NCBI RefSeq assembly: GCF_036507355.1
Contig: NZ_AP027877.1
Length of the DNA stretch: 64,000 nucleotides
Reading direction: 5' to 3' (one strand)
DNA from: Escherichia coli
GTDB taxonomy: Bacteria; Pseudomonadota; Gammaproteobacteria; Enterobacterales; Enterobacteriaceae
The notes beneath the pieces are model-generated. The model did not search any database and was not told the DNA's origin. It saw only the letters and a list, made by a program, of their open reading frames with translations. The translations under genes were made by a program, and so were the position numbers. Below, piece after piece: positions 511 through 27,984 of this stretch (positions are counted from its first letter, which is position 1; the number at the start of each line of letters is the position of its first letter).

Positions 511-1401
511 ATGGATGCAAAACAAACGCGGCAGGGCGTATTACTCGCTCTTGCCGCTTATTTTATTTGGGGTATAGCCCCAGCGTACTTCAAGTTGATT
601 TACTACGTGCCCGCCGATGAAATCCTGACGCATCGCGTGATCTGGTCGTTTTTCTTTATGGTGGTGCTGATGAGCATTTGCCGCCAGTGGTCCTATTTAA
701 AAACGCTGATTCAGACGCCACAGAAAATTTTTATGCTTGCAGTCTCTGCCGTGCTGATTGGTGGCAACTGGCTACTGTTTATCTGGGCGGTGAACAATCA
801 CCATATGCTGGAAGCGAGCCTTGGTTACTTTATTAACCCGCTGGTGAACATTGTGCTGGGGATGATTTTCCTCGGCGAGCGATTCCGCCGGATGCAATGG
901 CTGGCGGTGATTCTGGCGATATGTGGCGTGTTGGTTCAGCTGTGGACTTTTGGTTCACTGCCGATCATCGCGCTGGGACTGGCATTTAGTTTTGCCTTCT
1001 ACGGTCTGGTACGCAAGAAGATTGCCGTTGAAGCGCAAACCGGCATGTTAATCGAAACTATGTGGCTGCTGCCCGTGGCGGCAATTTACCTGTTTGCTAT
1101 TGCCGATAGCTCAACCAGCCATATGGGGCAAAACCCGATATCGCTGAATTTACTGCTGATCGCTGCCGGTATTGTCACTACCGTACCGCTGTTGTGTTTT
1201 ACTGCAGCTGCGACACGCCTGCGTCTCTCAACGTTAGGCTTTTTCCAGTACATTGGCCCGACGCTGATGTTCCTGCTGGCTGTGACGTTTTATGGTGAAA
1301 AACCGGGTGCCGATAAAATGGTGACTTTCGCCTTTATTTGGGTGGCGCTGGCAATTTTTGTGATGGATGCAATTTATACTCAACGTAGAACGTCCAAATA
1401 A
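511..1401 (+). CDS. rarD: RarD, EamA/DMT-family transporter
   Basis: 296-aa polytopic membrane ORF, expected length and synteny. Confidence 0.9.
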   Translation: MDAKQTRQGVLLALAAYFIWGIAPAYFKLIYYVPADEILTHRVIWSFFFMVVLMSICRQWSYLKTLIQTPQKIFMLAVSAVLIGGNWLLFIWAVNNHHMLEASLGYFINPLVNIVLGMIFLGERFRRMQWLAVILAICGVLVQLWTFGSLPIIALGLAFSFAFYGLVRKKIAVEAQTGMLIETMWLLPVAAIYLFAIADSSTSHMGQNPISLNLLLIAAGIVTTVPLLCFTAAATRLRLSTLGFFQYIGPTLMFLLAVTFYGEKPGADKMVTFAFIWVALAIFVMDAIYTQRRTSK

Positions 1402-1435
1402 AAAATAAATATATTCTGAAAAAATATGCCGACTC

Positions 1436-1813
1436 TTGCATGAGAGTGGGCATATTGCCATGCTGACAGGAGACTCACACAAGGATGTAAAATTTATGTT
1501 ACGTATGTTTATCCCAACATCTAACGGTAAGATTTCCAGACGCCGTTATATATTTTCATTTATTTTAATAAACTTCATTTTTGCCTTTCTTATTATCTTT
1601 TTTAACGATGGAGAAGCAGGTTTTCTTGTTATAGTCTCTACCATCTTACTCCATTATCTCGTCATCAATCTGAATTGCCAACGACTCCGTGATAGTGGTT
1701 TCGTCTATATAAAAACTTATGTTTTTGGTACATTAGCAGTATATATCATCTCTATCATCACAATGATAGCCGAAGATTTTGCCTGTTCAGGCAATGGTTC
1801 GATGATTTTTTAA
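1436..1813 (+). CDS. yigG: small inner-membrane protein, YigG-like
   Basis: 125-aa hydrophobic ORF in the expected position between rarD and yigF; start codon uncertain. Confidence 0.55.
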
Positions 1814-1888
1814 TTTGTTATTTTTCCACTTTCAGTATGCTAATGCTTGCACCTACTGATTCATCAAAACAATAGTTATGGAGTATTT

Positions 1889-2269
1889 ATGAGTAAGGAA
1901 TATATGAACGATGGTTCATTAAGTGAAAAATGGAAATACCGATTTAATTTTTATGATCAACATGGTTTTCCTGGATTCTGGGGGGCAACACCAGAATATA
2001 AAGCAGCATTTAAAGCATTAAAAGTAAGACAACGCTTAACTATTCAAATGAATTTCATTGCTTTCTTCTGTTCCTAGATATATTTATTTGTCCTGGGGTT
2101 ATGGAAAAAAGCAATTATAGTTCTATTACTTGGTATTCTATCTCTATTTGTTGGTGCACTAATTGGCGTTAACATTCTGGGTATTGCCGTAGCAGCCTAT
2201 GTTGCTGTTAACACGAACAAATGGTTCTATGAGAAAGAAGTAAAAGGGTTAAATACCTGGAGCCTTTGA
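1889..2269 (+). pseudogene. yigF: yigF (DUF2628 membrane protein) interrupted by in-frame TAG at 2075-2077
   Basis: Frame from MSKEY (1889) stops at TAG 2075-2077, then stays open in the same frame for 63 more codons to TGA 2267-2269; 62+1+63 = 126 codons, the length I recall for intact YigF. Confidence 0.6.
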
Positions 2270-2275
2270 ATAAGA

Positions 2276-2310
2276 GGTGGCTTAGCCAGGCTAAGCCACC
2301 GCCTTCTTTT
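2276..2310. terminator. hairpin (GGTGGCTTAGCC/GGCTAAGCCACC) plus T-run between convergent yigF and corA 3' remnant
   Basis: perfect inverted repeat followed by CTTCTTTTT on the + strand. Confidence 0.5.
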
Positions 2311-2446
2311 TACAACCAGTTCTTGCGCTTAAAGTACAGATACGGTGCCAGGCCCGCGAGGATCATAAAGATAATCGCGCCTGGGTAGCCGAAACTCCAC
2401 TTCAGTTCTGGCATAAACTCAAAGTTCATGCCATAGCTGGAGGCAA
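2310..2446 (-). pseudogene. detached corA 3'-terminal remnant (last 44 codons incl. GMN motif); left copy of a 137-bp imperfect direct repeat
   Basis: ORF 2310..2513 ends ...[44 protein letters not shown], identical in amino acids to the C-terminus of full corA at 4017..; upstream part of the ORF is unrelated or decayed. Confidence 0.7.
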
Positions 2447-2637
2447 TCCGCGTAGGAAAAAGTTTCCTAATCGGTAAATTCAACATATTGTTATTAACAA
2501 TGGGCAAAACCAATCAATAACGAGATTCCCTTCGGAATGTAATAAAAATGTGAAGTGTACTTCTTTTTTAAAATTTTTTATCCTAGCATTTGTTCTCAAA
2601 TTGATATTGAGCTTAAATATAACCAAGGAAAATGTAA

Positions 2638-3345
2638 ATGAATAACACATTACTTCCATCAATTAATATTCCCTGTACACTTTTCGAAACTATTAGTTTA
2701 TTTGATGATTATTCTGCTGATGATATGCAATATGGTGATATGGTAGAACAAGATTTTCTCTCACTCGGCCTAAGCGATATCTCAGCAAAAGTTGATCCTT
2801 ACAGACTTATTAAATACCATTTCCCTGGCCCAGGTTCTGTTAATGTTGTTTTTAGTGCCTCAAGTTCCGGAACAAAAATATCACAACGTGAATGCACTGA
2901 TATTTTATTTGCAGAAATGAAAGAACTAGCAAAAAATTTTTCCTTTTTTGGACAATATAAAACACTTATCGAAGATCTGATTGAACATTTTAGATATGGA
3001 AATGGCAGCAATTTTCATAGCCAACAATTAAATTTATCTTTTCATGAAAAGATAAATAAATATGGTTATAATAGTCCAATACGAATAATCAAAGAATGTA
3101 TCGAAAATGGCATTAATTCAACTCCCTCGACAGGATACCAACCTCTTATCCTGCAAAGCATTAAAACCAAATTACTTTCATCAAGACTAAATAAATTTAA
3201 TGACTTCGAGGACAGTTTTAATGGCTTAGGAATCAGTATTCATGATATTTCAGCTCAAAAAAATATCTCTTTTAAGCTTTCAAAAATACGCTATAGGGTG
3301 GAGTGCGACAATTCATTTTGTAGCACAGGACCACTTCGGTCTTGA
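2638..3345 (+). CDS. hypothetical protein, AT-rich cassette gene A; probably frameshifted, C-terminus may continue in +1 frame to 3487
   Basis: 235-aa ORF with AAGGA RBS ~8 nt upstream; ~30% GC; overlapping +1-frame ORF 3242..3487 ends in an ATGA overlap with gene B. Confidence 0.5.
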   Translation: MNNTLLPSINIPCTLFETISLFDDYSADDMQYGDMVEQDFLSLGLSDISAKVDPYRLIKYHFPGPGSVNVVFSASSSGTKISQRECTDILFAEMKELAKNFSFFGQYKTLIEDLIEHFRYGNGSNFHSQQLNLSFHEKINKYGYNSPIRIIKECIENGINSTPSTGYQPLILQSIKTKLLSSRLNKFNDFEDSFNGLGISIHDISAQKNISFKLSKIRYRVECDNSFCSTGPLRS

Positions 3346-3483
3346 TGTAACTGATATCAAAAACAAGACTTACAGCAAATATAGATTTTTTCGCATATGG
3401 TTCTTTTTACAACGGCATAAAGGCTTTGCTTTCAAACCTTTTTTCACCAATTTTAACACTATCGAAAGAATCGAAAATTATCT

Positions 3484-3975
3484 ATGAAAAGCAAACGCCA
3501 GAAAATTATATTATGTTTATTTCTTCTATGCTGTATCTATAATTTATGGACATTGCGTCCTGTACAGATTTTGTATACATACTCTGATGCTGGCAATTCA
3601 GTCTTTCTGGTCGTTGATCATCTGCCATGGACTGACAGCGATAAAATAAATTGGTATCTGAAGCATCAGAATGAAATTAAAAATCAACATCCCCTACCAG
3701 AAGGTAGTTGGCATACCTGGTATGTCATTGATATCGGTAATGGCTTCACTGACTATAAAAAATATATCGAAGGGCCGTATGAAGATCTCTACTGTTTCCC
3801 GACAATTAAGAGCAATGATAATTGCATCGTGAAAAATTACTTAATGGTTATTAATGAATACCCTTATCGTAACACTCATATTGGTATTAACGATTTTACT
3901 GAGTATCAATTAACACAAGAAAATAAAATAGAGCGAGTTTTCAATCCGCATGACTTTAAAAAAGACAATTTTTAG
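3484..3975 (+). CDS. small protein with N-terminal hydrophobic anchor/signal, cassette gene B
   Basis: 163-aa ORF, N-terminus KIILCLFLLCCIYNLW is hydrophobic; start overlaps upstream frame by ATGA; AT-rich. Confidence 0.55.
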   Translation: MKSKRQKIILCLFLLCCIYNLWTLRPVQILYTYSDAGNSVFLVVDHLPWTDSDKINWYLKHQNEIKNQHPLPEGSWHTWYVIDIGNGFTDYKKYIEGPYEDLYCFPTIKSNDNCIVKNYLMVINEYPYRNTHIGINDFTEYQLTQENKIERVFNPHDFKKDNF

Positions 3976-3980
3976 AAATA

Positions 3981-4010
3981 AGCCGGATAAAAAAATAGCT
4001 TTATCCGGCA
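3981..4010. repeat. REP-like palindromic hairpin (GCCGGATAAA...TTTATCCGGC) between cassette gene B and corA stop
   Basis: 10-bp inverted repeat seen directly; motif resembles E. coli REP units. Confidence 0.4.
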
Positions 4011-4016
4011 CTCATA

Positions 4017-4967
4017 TTACAACCAGTTCTTCCGCTTAAAGTACAGATACGGTGCCAGGCCCGCGAGGATCATAAAGATAATCGCGCCTGGGTAGCCGAA
4101 ACTCCACTTCAGTTCTGGCATAAACTCAAAGTTCATCCCGTAGCTGGAAGCAACCAGCGTTGGCGGCAGGAACACGACGGATACCACCGAGAAAATTTTG
4201 ATGATGCGGTTCTGCTCGATGTTGATAAAACCCATTGCCGCCTGCATCAGGAAGTTCACCTTCTGGAACAGGGATTCGTTATGCGGCAGCAGGGATTCGA
4301 TATCTCGCAGGATTTCACGCGCCTGCTCCAGTTGCCCACCCGGTAAGCGTGCTTTACGTACCAGGAAGTTGAGAGCGCGCTGGGTATCCATCAGACACAG
4401 GCGAACTTTCCAGCCGATATCTTCCAGTTCCGCCAGAGTGGAGAGCGCCTCGTCGTACTCATCGCCCTGATGCCCTTCCATAATCACCCGGCTCAATTGC
4501 TCCAGGTCGCTATAGATATTTTCAATTTCATCTGCCAACTGTTCGATTTTGGTTTCGAACAAATCCAGCAGCAACTCGTAGGCGTTACCGTCTACCATCG
4601 ACTGGCTACGGGCACGCATACGATATAGACGAAAAGCGGGCAGTTCACGCTCACGCAGAGTAAACAGACGACCATCACGGATGGTAAATGCCACAGTGGA
4701 GTTACCGGCGTGATCTTCCGCATCTTCAAAGAAGAAGAAGGAGTGAATATGCAGGCCGTCATCGTCTTCAAAGAAACGTGCCGATGCTTCGATGTCTTCC
4801 AGTTCCGGGCGGGTTGCCAGGCTCTGGCCAAGTTCAGATTGTACGCGCAGTCGCTCGTCGTCGTCCGGTTCGACAAGATCAATCCATACTGCATTTACAA
4901 GGGGTTGTGACTCTTCGACTTCCAGCCGGGTCAGTCGGTTATTTTCCAGTTGAAATGCGCTCAGCAT
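4017..4967 (-). CDS. corA: Mg2+/Co2+ transporter CorA
   Basis: ORF 4017..4982; native start [10 protein letters not shown] gives 316 aa; GMN motif and two C-terminal TM segments present. Confidence 0.95.
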
Positions 4968-21979: not shown

Positions 21980-23176
21980 ATGCTAAAAGTGTTATTGCTC
22001 TTTGTGTTGCTGATTGCGGGGATCGTGGTTGGCCCGATGATTGCCGGTCATCAGGGTTATGTGCTGATCCAGACCGACAACTACAATATCGAAACCAGCG
22101 TCACGGGCCTGGCGATCATATTGATTCTGGCGATGGTAGTGCTGTTTGCCATTGAGTGGCTACTGCGGCGGATCTTCCGCACTGGCGCGCACACCCGTGG
22201 GTGGTTTGTCGGGCGTAAGCGTCGCCGTGCACGTAAGCAGACCGAACAGGCGCTGCTGAAACTGGCGGAAGGCGATTATCAGCAAGTTGAAAAGCTGATG
22301 GCGAAAAATGCCGATCACGCTGAACAACCGGTGGTGAACTATCTACTGGCTGCCGAAGCCGCGCAACAACGTGGTGATGAAGCGCGCGCCAACCAACATC
22401 TGGAACGCGCAGCGGAGCTGGCCGGCAATGACACCATTCCGGTAGAAATCACCCGTGTACGTCTGCAACTGGCCCGTAATGAAAACCATGCTGCACGCCA
22501 CGGCGTGGATAAGCTGCTGGAAGTTACGCCACGCCATCCGGAAGTATTACGTCTGGCGGAACAGGCGTATATCCGCACAGGTGCATGGAGTTCGCTGCTG
22601 GATATTATCCCATCAATGGCGAAAGCCCATGTTGGTGATGAAGAACATCGTGCAATGCTGGAACAACAGGCATGGATTGGCCTGATGGATCAGGCGCGTG
22701 CCGATAACGGTAGCGAAGGTTTGCGTAACTGGTGGAAAAACCAAAGCCGGAAAACGCGTCATCAGGTAGCGTTGCAGGTGGCAATGGCGGAACATCTTAT
22801 TGAATGTGACGATCATGATACTGCCCAGCAAATTATCATCGATGGCCTGAAACGCCAGTACGACGATCGCCTACTGCTGCCGATTCCTCGACTGAAAACA
22901 AACAATCCGGAACAGCTGGAAAAAGTGCTGCGCCAGCAAATCAAAAACGTCGGCGATCGCCCGCTGTTGTGGAGCACACTGGGCCAGTCACTGATGAAGC
23001 ACGGAGAATGGCAGGAAGCATCGCTCGCCTTCCGCGCAGCGCTGAAACAACGTCCGGACGCCTACGATTACGCATGGCTTGCCGACGCGCTGGACAGACT
23101 GCACAAGCCGGAAGAAGCTGCAGCGATGCGTCGCGACGGTTTGATGTTAACGTTGCAGAACAACCCACCACAGTAG
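21980..23176 (+). CDS. hemY: HemY (TPR-containing membrane protein)
   Basis: 398-aa ORF directly after hemX. Confidence 0.9.
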   Translation: MLKVLLLFVLLIAGIVVGPMIAGHQGYVLIQTDNYNIETSVTGLAIILILAMVVLFAIEWLLRRIFRTGAHTRGWFVGRKRRRARKQTEQALLKLAEGDYQQVEKLMAKNADHAEQPVVNYLLAAEAAQQRGDEARANQHLERAAELAGNDTIPVEITRVRLQLARNENHAARHGVDKLLEVTPRHPEVLRLAEQAYIRTGAWSSLLDIIPSMAKAHVGDEEHRAMLEQQAWIGLMDQARADNGSEGLRNWWKNQSRKTRHQVALQVAMAEHLIECDDHDTAQQIIIDGLKRQYDDRLLLPIPRLKTNNPEQLEKVLRQQIKNVGDRPLLWSTLGQSLMKHGEWQEASLAFRAALKQRPDAYDYAWLADALDRLHKPEEAAAMRRDGLMLTLQNNPPQ

Positions 23177-23228
23177 TTCCTTCTCACCCGGAGGCAAGCA
23201 CCTCCGGGGCCTTCCTGACACATAAAAA

Positions 23229-23258
23229 AACGCCTGCTCTTATTACGGAGCAGGCGTT
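23229..23258. terminator. hairpin (AACGCCTGCTC...GAGCAGGCGTT) downstream of hemY
   Basis: 11-bp inverted repeat flanked by A-run on + strand (T-run on - strand). Confidence 0.4.
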
Positions 23259-23854
23259 AAAACAGGTCTGTATGACAACAAGTGGGTGCTTCACTCAACG
23301 TTGTGTCCATGGTGTCTGATGAGGCATAAGCGACATCTGTCAGTGGACGATAAGCACCGTAAACGGCTCTGCGTCATTCCGGAGTTTATGAGGCACTAAG
23401 GCGAACATAAGAGATGGAATGAGCATCTACTCGTTTATTATGCCACAGAGAATCGGGAAATAACATCCCTTAACACTTGTTATGAGATAATTCTGTAATC
23501 CTCTTTGCTTCCTGAGTAATAACTTCCTGAGTGAACATTTAACCTGAGCTTGATCCTACACATACTTATTATGAATGATAAAATTCATTCAATTAATAAC
23601 ACATATATTAATTGCCGTTAAAACTAAAAACATCATTAATAATCAACGCGATATAATAAACCTGCCTTACATATCAACTGCGCCAGAGGTAGGATTGAAA
23701 ACGCTCTCCTGATTTTTAAATTCATTTCTTGGATAAATAAATAATTTATTTTTATCACTATTATTTATGTAATCATCCTGTCAGGGAGAGGGATCTCAAT
23801 TATCAATGCTTAATTACGTCATCATTTTGTTGACATGAAACCGGAGCATTTTGC

Positions 23855-25510
23855 ATGGAATTTTCGTTTTCACCCAAACGTCTTGTTGTTGCTGTCGCCG
23901 CCGCTCTTCCTCTCATGGCCAGCGCAGCAGATACCCCGTCAACTGCCACCGCACGCAAAGGCTTTGCCGGATACGATCACCCAAACCAGTATCTGGTTAA
24001 ACCGGCGACCACTATTGCCGACAATATGATGCCAGTAATGCAGCATCCGGCGCAGGATAAAGAAACCCAGCAGAAGCTGGCAGAACTTGAGAAAAAAACC
24101 GGTAAGAAACCGAATGTGGTTGTTTTCTTGCTGGACGATGTGGGCTGGATGGACGTCGGTTTTAACGGTGGCGGCGTGGCGGTGGGTAACCCTACACCAG
24201 ATATCGACGCCGTTGCCAGCCAGGGGCTGATTTTAACTTCGGCGTATTCTCAACCAAGCTCTTCCCCAACCCGCGCCACCATTCTCACCGGACAATACTC
24301 CATCCACCACGGCATTCTGATGCCGCCAATGTACGGGCAACCGGGCGGGCTGCAAGGGTTAACCACGCTGCCGCAGTTGCTGCACGATCAGGGCTACGTC
24401 ACTCAGGCCATCGGGAAATGGCATATGGGGGAAAACAAAGAGTCGCAGCCGCAGAACGTTGGCTTTGATGATTTCCGTGGCTTTAACTCGGTGTCTGATA
24501 TGTACACCGAATGGCGCGACGTTCACGTAAACCCGGAAGTGGCCCTGAGTCCGGACCGTTCTGAATACATCAAGCAATTACCATTTAGCAAAGATGACGT
24601 TCATGCGGTGCGCGGCGGCGAACAACAGGCCATTGCCGACATTACGCCGAAATATATGGAAGATCTGGATCAACGCTGGATGGAATATGGCGTTAAGTTC
24701 CTCGACAAGATGGCGAAGAGTGATAAGCCTTTCTTCCTCTATTACGGCACTCGCGGCTGTCACTTCGATAACTACCCGAACGCCAAATATGCGGGTAGCT
24801 CTCCGGCACGCACCTCGTATGGCGACTGCATGGTGGAAATGAACGATGTGTTCGCTAATCTGTATAAAGCACTGGAGAAAAACGGTCAGCTTGATAACAC
24901 GCTGATTGTCTTTACCTCCGATAACGGACCGGAAGCCGAAGTACCGCCGCACGGACGCACACCGTTCCGTGGTGCGAAAGGATCTACCTGGGAAGGCGGC
25001 GTTCGCGTTCCGACTTTCGTGTACTGGAAAGGGATGATCCAACCGCGTAAATCTGACGGTATTGTCGATCTGGCAGATCTCTTCCCTACCGCGCTGGATC
25101 TGGCAGGGCATCCTGGCGCGAAAGTGGCGAATTTAGTGCCGAAAACCACCTTTATCGATGGTGTGGACCAGACATCTTTCTTCCTGGGAACAAATGGTCA
25201 GTCTAACCGTAAGGCCGAGCACTACTTCCTCAACGGTAAACTCGCTGCTGTGCGTATGGATGAATTCAAGTATCACGTCCTGATTCAGCAACCTTACGCT
25301 TATACCCAGAGCGGATATCAGGGTGGATTCACCGGCACAGTAATGCAAACAGCCGGATCGTCGGTGTTTAACCTGTACACCGATCCGCAGGAGAGCGACT
25401 CCATCGGCGTGCGCCATATTCCGATGGGTGTACCGCTACAGACCGAAATGCACGCGTATATGGAGATCCTGAAAAAGTATCCACCACGCGCGCAGATTAA
25501 ATCTGATTAA
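23855..25510 (+). CDS. aslA: arylsulfatase AslA
   Basis: 551-aa ORF with signal peptide and sulfatase-type region ([13 protein letters not shown]: Cys to be converted to formylglycine). Confidence 0.9.
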
Positions 25511-25519
25511 GCCGGCGAT

Positions 25520-25660
25520 ATCGCTACATCGGGCCACACTGACCTTGCCGGATGCGGCGTGAACGCCTTATCCGGCCTACAAGCCTTGCAAATTCAATAA
25601 ATTGTAACGTTCTGTAGGCCGGATAAGATGCGGTCAGCATCGCATCCGGCAATCAACCGC
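25520..25660. repeat. REP/BIME palindromic units between convergent aslA and aslB
   Basis: GCCGGATGCGGCGTGAACGCCTTATCCGGCCTACA and inverted partner TGTAGGCCGGATAAG...CATCCGGC. Confidence 0.55.
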
Positions 25661-26822: not shown

Positions 26823-27891
26823 GCTGAATTTACAATCCAAGTGCAACAAAAAAAGAAGTACTCATCAACTAGAATATAATTTTGTTTCCACACAAAAACC
26901 ACTTCCAAATGATGAGTACTTCCTACCGACATCTTACAATAAACGAGCGAGAAAAGATAATGATTTTACTCGCACAGGGCAAAAAACAAGCAGAAATTGC
27001 CAAAGCACTGGGACGTAGCTCCAGCACCATTTCTCGCGAGCTGAAACGACACGCTCTAGAAAGCTACAGTGCAACGAACGCACAAAACAGCTATTTGAAG
27101 CATCGTCAAAATAGCAAAGCACAGCGCAAATTAGAGCAGCCTGAATATTTCAATTTGGTGCAAGAAAAGTTTCTGACAGAAAACTGGTCGCCCGAACAAA
27201 TCAGCGCACGATTAAAATTGGAAAAATCTGAATTATCCATTAGTTATTCAACCATTTATCGTGGTATTTATTCAGGGTTGTTTGATATAGGCGAACGCAA
27301 AGCCAGTCGCAAACTGCGCCACAAAGGCAAAACACGGCATACAAAAAATCATCATGAAAAACGTGGCAAAATTCAGATATCCAACCATTTGAACGACCGT
27401 CCCATTTCGGCGCAAAATCGCAGTCGCTTTGGACATTGGGAAGCCGATACCGTACTGGGTAAAGCGGGTGGAGCTTGTTTGCTGACGCTGACGGAACGCA
27501 AAAGTCGTTTTGAGTTGGTGAAGAAAATTCCTGCCAAAAAAGCCGAAGCAGTCCAAAAAGCCATGATTGAATTGCTGGATTCACATATATTGCGGTCAAT
27601 TACGCCAGACCGTGGTAAAGAATTTGCCCAACATCGTTTGGTAACAGAAGCACTGGGTGTAGAATTTTACTTCCCCGAGCCGCATCAACCGTGGACACGG
27701 GGAACGAATGAAAATACAAATGGGTTACTTCGTGAATACTTTCCGAAGCACCAAGACATCAATCAGTGGAGCGAAGTTGATATTCAACAGGTGATCAATA
27801 AACTGAATTTACGACCACGTAAATGTTTAGGTTGGAAAACACCTTATGAAGTTTACTTCAAAAAATCGTTGCACTTGGTTTGACAATTCAA
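26823..27891 (+). mobile_element. IS30-family insertion sequence (ISApl1-like), ~1.07 kb, imperfect ~24-bp terminal inverted repeats, 2-3 bp target duplication (GAG/AG)
   Basis: Left end GCTGAATTTACAATCCAAGTGCAAC; right end (reverse complement) TTGAATTGTCAAACCAAGTGCAAC; GAG flanks both ends; flanks rejoin into continuous aslB; ends +/-2 bp. Confidence 0.8.
26882..27883 (+). CDS. IS30-family DDE transposase
   Basis: 333-aa ORF with N-terminal HTH (LAQGKKQAEIAKALGRSSSTISRELKRH) and C-terminal DDE region (HWEADTV...TPDRGKEF...TRGTNENTNGLLREYFPK); 307 aa if started at the internal Met. Confidence 0.85.
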   Translation: MFPHKNHFQMMSTSYRHLTINEREKIMILLAQGKKQAEIAKALGRSSSTISRELKRHALESYSATNAQNSYLKHRQNSKAQRKLEQPEYFNLVQEKFLTENWSPEQISARLKLEKSELSISYSTIYRGIYSGLFDIGERKASRKLRHKGKTRHTKNHHEKRGKIQISNHLNDRPISAQNRSRFGHWEADTVLGKAGGACLLTLTERKSRFELVKKIPAKKAEAVQKAMIELLDSHILRSITPDRGKEFAQHRLVTEALGVEFYFPEPHQPWTRGTNENTNGLLREYFPKHQDINQWSEVDIQQVINKLNLRPRKCLGWKTPYEVYFKKSLHLV

Positions 27892-27894
27892 GAG

Positions 27895-27984
27895 ATAAAA
27901 ACAGTAGTCACAGTTCAGATTACAATCGGAACCGCTCGGTTTCGCCATCACATGAAAAGCACGCGTTGGAACCTGTTGCAGCAT
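27895..27984 (-). pseudogene. aslB: aslB 5' fragment (N-terminal ~30 codons with radical-SAM Cys triad) separated by the IS
   Basis: minus strand encodes MLQQVPTRAFHVMAKPSGSDCNLNCDYCFYL, then the IS end. Confidence 0.75.

Follow-up and report, generated by a model that had tools for sequence, protein, structure and literature searches.

Our analysis of a stretch of Escherichia coli DNA of 64,000 nucleotides, referred to here as the window, indicates that positions 23260-23854 almost certainly hold two known things: the small RNA gene glmZ (23224-23430, minus strand) and the divergent aslA/glmZ promoter spacer (23431-23854). The interval is ordinary, and published knowledge already explains it. 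glmZ has been known since 2001 and is a textbook sRNA. The discovery value is little, since the literature already covers glmZ, its promoter and mechanism, and also the binding of H-NS to the spacer. Our study makes one modest addition, and only one, namely a proposed structural account of the loss of the glmZ enhancer in E. coli. The DNA around the interval is the E. coli hemX-hemY-aslA-aslB region, and its features are as follows.

21980 to 23176, plus strand: hemY (context), a 398-aa ORF with the stop codon TAG at 23174-23176, where K-12 hemY (b3802) maps
23187 to 23208, plus strand: G+C-rich hairpin CCCGGAGG-caagca-CCTCCGGG, read from the sequence, 10 nt past the hemY stop
23224 to 23430, minus strand: glmZ (SraJ/RyiA) sRNA, 207-nt full-length primary transcript, Rfam RF00083, transcription start site (TSS) at 23430
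23224 to 23258, minus strand: intrinsic terminator of glmZ, stem 23258..23229 followed by TTTTT (11-bp stem, 8-nt loop, U7 tail), which forms the final stem-loop in the Rfam consensus
23259 to 23284, minus strand: single-stranded linker of GlmZ, about nt 147-172, CACUUGUUGUCAUACAGACCUGUUUU, placed from the Rfam structure line and the sequence, the exact nucleotides being approximate
23431 to 23854, no strand: divergent aslA/glmZ spacer, 424 bp, GC 0.316, defined by composition and corresponding to the region of the -424..+32 fragment
23437 to 23466, minus strand: sigma70 promoter of glmZ, with the -35 ATGTTA (23466-23461) and the extended -10 TGgCATAAT (23445-23437)
23470 to 23499, plus strand: candidate aslA-facing promoter TTAACA-18-TGTAAT, predicted, back-to-back with the glmZ -35 and within a 75-85% invariant block
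23695 to 23722, plus strand: candidate aslA-facing promoter TTGAAA-16-TAAATT from a consensus scan, inside the island 23680-23719 (conservation 0.85)
23843 to 23857, plus strand: Shine-Dalgarno sequence of aslA, GGAG (23843-23846), and its ATG at 23855, from the sequence
23855 to 25510, plus strand: aslA, arylsulfatase (context), a 551-aa ORF with the Pfam Sulfatase domain PF00884 (E=1.6e-71), corresponding to K-12 aslA (b3801)

The glmZ gene between hemY and aslA

A scan against all Rfam families placed GlmZ_SraJ (RF00083) at 23430..23224 on the minus strand with 218.4 bits (E=5.8e-58; threshold 60), a match to the full model (positions 1-214 of 214). The ncRNA glmZ of K-12 MG1655 (b4456, NC_000913.3), which lies between aslA and hemY on the opposite strand, maps to window positions 23430-23259, and the window and K-12 have the same glmZ sequence. 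Compared with shuffled sequences, the 207-nt RNA has a fold z-score of -3.3, and its minimum free energy (MFE) fold reproduces SL1, SL2 and the terminator. The three-stem-loop structure of RF00083 is present, its last stem-loop being an intrinsic terminator with a U tail. The preliminary description had taken the whole interval for empty non-coding DNA; its first part, 23260-23430, is the body of this RNA gene. The same description had left room for an unannotated small RNA. An sRNA is indeed present, but it is the known glmZ, annotated in NC_000913.3 and encoded in the part that is not AT-rich, on the opposite strand, of which that description took no account.

The hairpin at 23229-23258, previously taken for the hemY terminator, belongs to the same gene. 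Its plus-strand flank reads AAAAC, with no T-run; the T-run is found on the minus strand only, and the hairpin is therefore the glmZ terminator, equivalent to the 3' stem-loop of GlmZ in the Rfam structure. It is the sole intrinsic terminator that the terminator scan detected in 23100-23950. As read from the sequence, the hairpin at 23187-23208 is a possible end of the hemY transcript; it has no T-run and is absent from the output of the terminator scan. In strains such as EC32, a 591-bp ORF for a hypothetical protein of 196 aa (L002 915-1505) lies between the hemY stop and the glmZ terminator, at about window 23177-23220. The 47-bp hemY-glmZ gap is replaced in strains with this extra ORF, and the protein gave no Pfam match.

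The hemY stop (23176) and the aslA start (23855) are separated by 678 bp. Once the 207-nt glmZ is counted, two gaps are left: a convergent hemY-glmZ gap of 47 bp and a divergent glmZ-aslA gap of 424 bp. The latter is long for a divergent promoter region, not extraordinary. The convergence of the glmZ 3' end, across those 47 bp, with the 3' end of hemY at the end of hemCDXY is expected from GlmZ synteny, and HemY is located downstream of glmZ in 84 of 96 enterobacterial glmZ loci.

The description of the interval as about 600 bp of strongly AT-rich DNA applies to 23431-23854, whose GC of 0.316 compares with a window mean of 0.515, and not to 23260-23430 (171 bp, GC 0.48). Across the 64 kb, just 0.86% of 424-nt windows have a GC equal to or below that of 23431-23854. 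The A/T tracts noted earlier are present, with W-runs of up to 23 nt (23733-23755). The reported lack of ORFs of at least 60 aa was also borne out: none lies wholly inside 23260-23854 or the hemY-aslA gap, and the longest in 23260-23854 has 45 aa (23575-23712). Elsewhere in the 64-kb window, the tract 1288-4093 is the only other one that is equally AT-rich, with 424-nt windows down to GC 0.285.

The function of GlmZ is described in the literature. The full-length primary transcript of 207 nt pairs, together with Hfq, with the 5' UTR of glmS and thereby activates the synthesis of GlcN6P synthase; RapZ brings RNase E to GlmZ, and processing to about 151 nt takes away the pairing site, while the decoy sRNA GlmY sequesters RapZ at low GlcN6P (PMC4152352). 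According to the literature, GlmZ pairs with glmS through the linker, placed here at 23259..23284 from the Rfam structure, which also contains the site of RapZ-dependent processing by RNase E (at about nt 151). The linker of the window is identical to that of K-12.

At 172 nt, the K-12 RefSeq feature for glmZ (NC_000913.3 3986432-3986603) leaves out the terminator and is shorter than the 207 nt found both in the literature and by the Rfam match. A K-12 coordinate subtracted from 4,009,862 gives the window position. Among the genomes listed for the region, those annotated by PGAP carry no feature for glmZ, and sequence-only scans can therefore be expected to go on flagging the gap as empty.

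Promoters and conservation of the spacer

Gopel 2011 (PMC3045617) gives the Escherichia glmZ promoter (group III) as ATGTTA-N15-tggCATAAT. This motif occurs exactly at 23466-23437 on the minus strand and ends 6 nt before the G at 23430. The same paper reports that -40..+32 suffices for glmZ expression, that mutations in the -35 or the -10 abolish expression, that E. coli glmZ is constitutive and expressed equally in glrR and rpoN mutants, and that an EMSA for GlrR binding to the E. coli -424..+32 fragment was negative. The -424 end of that fragment is the aslA start codon, and therefore the fragment covers the whole AT-rich spacer. Transcription of glmZ thus starts from a constitutive sigma70 promoter, with an extended -10 and a weak -35, and ends at its own terminator beside the hemY stop. 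For glmZ, only the first 40 bp or so of the spacer are needed, and the rest would constitute the promoter and leader region of aslA.

The spacer might instead still act as a long-range enhancer of glmZ with degenerate GlrR, IHF and sigma54 sites, as in Salmonella and Yersinia. Such an architecture is found 150-300 bp upstream of glmZ in most Enterobacterales, and the E. coli -10 region (TGTGGCATAAT) can be aligned with the -12/-10 of sigma54-type promoters. However, TGGCAY-N5-TTGCW had no match in the spacer of the window in the glmZ-sense orientation at up to 2 substitutions, and TGTC-N10-GACA had none on either strand of the spacer at up to 1 substitution. Moreover, the spacer has no similarity to the upstream regions of the sigma54 type, and the published experiments already refute this explanation. 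We regard it as practically negligible and favor the constitutive sigma70 promoter.

On the aslA side, two promoter positions can be predicted. The candidate TTAACA-18-TGTAAT (23470-23499) is the best-match aslA promoter predicted by Shimada 2014 (PMC3946193), and the candidate TTGAAA-16-TAAATT (23695-23722) lies further downstream; either may be the aslA promoter, as judged from the sequence. In the literature, we found no paper on the aslA promoter, and the published reports on aslA expression concern an indirect dependence on RpoE in E. coli K1. The promoter scan returned 4 sigma70-like sites, which is not significant against the 1.9 +/- 1.6 expected from shuffled sequence, and it missed the real glmZ promoter because the -35 of the latter is weak.

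Shimada 2014 (PMC3946193, Table 1) lists aslA<>glmZ as a type-A spacer with binding of the RpoD holoenzyme and marks it HNS, that is, as a genomic SELEX site of H-NS. The preliminary description considered the region typical of H-NS-silenced regulatory DNA. The AT-rich 424 bp are indeed the regulatory DNA of a divergent promoter region with RpoD and H-NS SELEX sites in vitro; the silencing of aslA by H-NS in vivo we only infer. No published report of in vivo H-NS silencing of aslA or glmZ was found, and glmZ is reported to be constitutive. The high-affinity motif of H-NS (TCGATAAATT) has one match in the spacer at up to 2 mismatches (23730), which is only about 2x the window-wide density and is therefore uninformative. 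Beyond the core promoter of glmZ, the spacer is AT-rich, H-NS-binding in vitro and fast-evolving DNA without a further gene.

Conservation was assessed by aligning E. albertii and one further Escherichia species representative (locus L026) with eight alleles of E. coli. Of 5426 complete E. coli genomes, 5425 contain the hemY-aslA gap, and 5406 contain the spacer when it is taken by itself with at least 80% coverage. Identity in glmZ is 100% for seven E. coli alleles, 99.5% for the eighth (L002), 99.0% for E. albertii and 98.6% for L026. Between species, the hemY 3' end is 88-90% and the aslA 5' end 85-88% identical. No segment of the locus evolves faster than the spacer beyond the core promoter, whose identities are 80% (E. 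albertii), 75% (L026) and 89-92% between divergent E. coli alleles; indels shorten the spacer to 409 nt in one allele (L125). Better-conserved islands within it are 23460-23499, 23680-23719 and 23800-23819, and 23840-23859, containing the ribosome-binding site and start of aslA, is 100% invariant in 6 Escherichia sequences. A lack of conservation beyond the aslA promoter was named in the preliminary description as something that would refute its view; this holds for most of the AT-rich spacer but fails for the invariant glmZ.

The block 23460-23499, corresponding to glmZ -30..-70, is 75-85% invariant across Escherichia species, though glmZ needs only -40. Since its conservation extends beyond the need of the glmZ promoter, an unrecognised element may sit there. 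The spacer also contains a 7-bp perfect inverted repeat, TGAATGA-N6-TCATTCA (23572-23591), which other Escherichia alleles do not preserve.

The aslA body is found in 3697 of 5426 complete E. coli genomes and is deleted in about 32%. Many E. coli (including loci L127, L128 and L124) have an internal aslA deletion of 1.6 kb (window 23994-25590) that leaves a 138-bp remnant. In strain Res13-Lact-PEB21-38-A (L124 3249-4016), an IS1 has taken the place of window 23425-23857, so that the entire spacer is gone together with the start codon of aslA and the 5'-most 6 nt of glmZ; glmZ of this natural allele has lost its promoter. K-12 engineering has also made use of the aslA-glmZ spacer as a neutral site for chromosomal integration (PMC9345386, PMC13069688).

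These data bear on the possibility that, beyond the two core promoters, the spacer is functionless, being drifting DNA left by the aslBA replacement whose AT-richness reflects mutational bias and not selection for H-NS silencing. The spacer is 75-80% identical between species against 85-90% for adjacent coding DNA, it has accumulated indels (the 409-nt spacer of L125), it is dispensable for glmZ and tolerates integration, the aslA gene itself is missing from nearly a third of the complete genomes (about 32%), and only a single H-NS high-affinity motif match was found at up to 2 mismatches. However, 5406 of 5426 genomes keep the spacer, even without aslA, it retains the three conserved islands, and its binding of H-NS and RpoD in vitro has been reported (PMC3946193). 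We consider purely drifting DNA unlikely. It overlaps the explanation that we favor, a divergent promoter region with an H-NS-binding aslA leader, and differs only on whether the H-NS binding matters for aslA.

Could the spacer (23431-23854) encode an additional, unannotated sRNA or a translated micro-ORF? It contains short ORFs of 45 aa (23575-23712, plus strand) and 40 aa (23636-23758, minus strand) and 4 sigma70-like sites, and the 140-nt window 23571-23710 (plus strand) folds with z=-2.4. However, of 10 other alleles, 5 have ATA where the 45-aa ORF starts with ATG and 2 have stops inside it, the 40-aa ORF is broken by stops in each of the two other Escherichia species, and the remaining spacer ORFs are frameshifted or interrupted. 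For an sRNA, there is no intrinsic terminator beyond that of glmZ, the promoter-like sites do not exceed the shuffled expectation, and Rfam at E<=1 gave nothing else but a spurious snoRNA match (E=0.23). Ten 140-nt folding windows, taken on both strands of the spacer in search of structured RNA, gave z from +0.5 to -2.4; nine of the ten had |z|<1.7, and z=-2.4 is unremarkable among 10 tests. Furthermore, conservation across the locus is lowest in the spacer, engineered insertions in it are tolerated, and IS1 has replaced it in a natural strain. A further gene in the spacer is thus very unlikely, which leaves glmZ and the divergent promoter region as the contents of the interval.

In all, eight short ORFs were compared across 11 Escherichia alleles and rejected as micro-ORFs. 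In the spacer, none of them is preserved: starts are lost, or stops or frameshifts appear, so that the micro-ORF suggested by the preliminary description did not survive the comparison. The ORFs that stay intact overlap the invariant glmZ, and therefore their intactness says nothing on coding.

Synteny and the origin of the aslBA block

A scan for the GlmZ core motif in species-representative genomes yielded 120 loci, 96 of which have a recognisable glmZ 5' end. Most of the 96 carry TGGCAY-N5-(T/G)TGCA at -27 together with two or three TGTC-N10-GACA sites near -245, -213 and -150; this pattern reproduces Gopel 2011 (PMC3045617). Both the sigma54 promoter and the GlrR sites are absent from the Escherichia glmZ loci. 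Among the glmZ loci compared, the E. coli spacer aligns only within Escherichia, at 81% identity to E. albertii and 78% to L026.

The upstream neighbor of glmZ is aslA in exactly five loci, those of E. albertii, Escherichia L026, Superficieibacter, Kluyvera genomosp. 1 and Pseudocitrobacter, and the upstream regions of all five are AT-rich (GC 0.31-0.34) and sigma54-less. In about 40 other loci with enough flank, the order is thrP, the tRNA cluster Arg-His-Leu-Pro, 220-860 bp of DNA and glmZ. This order spans Yersinia, Serratia, Proteus and Providencia to Salmonella, Citrobacter and Enterobacter. At the left junction, all genera align through the tRNA-Pro terminator and diverge directly after it. 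The right junction is at about -20, since only about 20 bp upstream of the glmZ TSS (TGTG.CATAAT) are alignable between Escherichia and the sigma54 genera. Between these two points, Escherichia, Superficieibacter, Kluyvera genomosp. 1 and Pseudocitrobacter have aslB-aslA and the spacer, which are absent from the roughly 40 other loci.

We propose that the aslB-aslA-spacer block (about 3.3-3.6 kb) would have replaced an ancestral enhancer of about 250 bp that contained three GlrR sites, IHF sites and the sigma54 -24 element. E. coli glmZ would then be outside GlrR/sigma54 control because the aslBA block replaced the enhancer. We lean towards the view that glmZ lost GlrR(QseF)/sigma54 control by this single structural event and not by gradual decay of sites: an aslB-aslA cassette with its AT-rich, H-NS-binding leader probably replaced the approximately 250 bp from the tRNA-Pro terminator to about -20, leaving the overlapping sigma70 -10 in place and supplying a new, weak -35 from the incoming DNA. 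The accessible part of Gopel 2011 (PMC3045617) describes the two promoter groups as unalignable and the upstream region as variable, and draws no link there to the aslBA block or to the tRNA junction. The replacement of the enhancer by aslBA would be a concrete structural explanation of a known rewiring of sRNA regulation between Salmonella or Yersinia and E. coli.

On the simplest reading, the arrangement without aslBA is ancestral, and the block is derived in the Escherichia lineage; both the direction and the cause of the enhancer replacement are what we infer. Alternatively, aslBA could have been present ancestrally and lost repeatedly, as its occurrence at the same site in scattered genera would allow. 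The preliminary description had suggested a horizontally acquired promoter region. Synteny supports a lineage-specific acquisition of aslB-aslA and the spacer, but the composition of aslA and aslB is ordinary for E. coli (G+C 0.50-0.59); only the spacer is AT-rich, and the block has no integrase. Composition alone therefore does not mark the block as foreign.

Several other loci, from Raoultella, Citrobacter werkmanii, C. youngae, Citrobacter sp. Cu233 and Pluralibacter (two loci), have neither a good sigma54/GlrR match nor aslA. In these loci, tRNA-Pro lies only 222-266 bp from the glmZ start, which suggests an independent loss of the sigma54/GlrR elements by deletion. Since the sigma54 match is lost there without aslA and the gap between tRNA-Pro and glmZ is short, there is more than one route to the loss of sigma54.

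The aslB gene of the window is itself interrupted. An IS30-family element, annotated elsewhere as ISApl1 (Pfam HTH_38 + rve), occupies window 26850-27930 (ORF 26882-27883, plus strand) in the 5' end of aslB. The aslB ORF left after the insertion has 390 aa and is without the N-terminal CxxxCxxC radical-SAM motif found in E. albertii. An identical insertion is present in E. coli 17MR471 (NZ_CP051158.1), and the copy is strain-specific.

Comparison with known systems

The closest contrast is with the sigma54/GlrR(QseF)-dependent glmZ and glmY promoters of Yersinia, Salmonella and most Enterobacterales (Gopel 2011). The downstream gene, the TSS and an alignable -10/-12 region are shared with these promoters. 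In contrast, the E. coli spacer is without the -24 element, the three TGTC-N10-GACA sites and the IHF sites, and it is AT-rich, unalignable with the sigma54-type regions and bordered by aslA rather than by the tRNA-Pro terminator.

The spacer resembles the H-NS-bound type-A spacers of Shimada 2014 (PMC3946193), which are likewise AT-rich, located between divergent genes and provided with RpoD and H-NS SELEX sites. GlmY, the paralogue of GlmZ, differs from it in having no glmS-pairing linker. In relation to K-12 GlmZ (b4456, RF00083), the gene of the window is the same gene, with the same sequence, the same place between aslA and hemY, the same promoter motif and the same terminator, and the two show no substantive difference.
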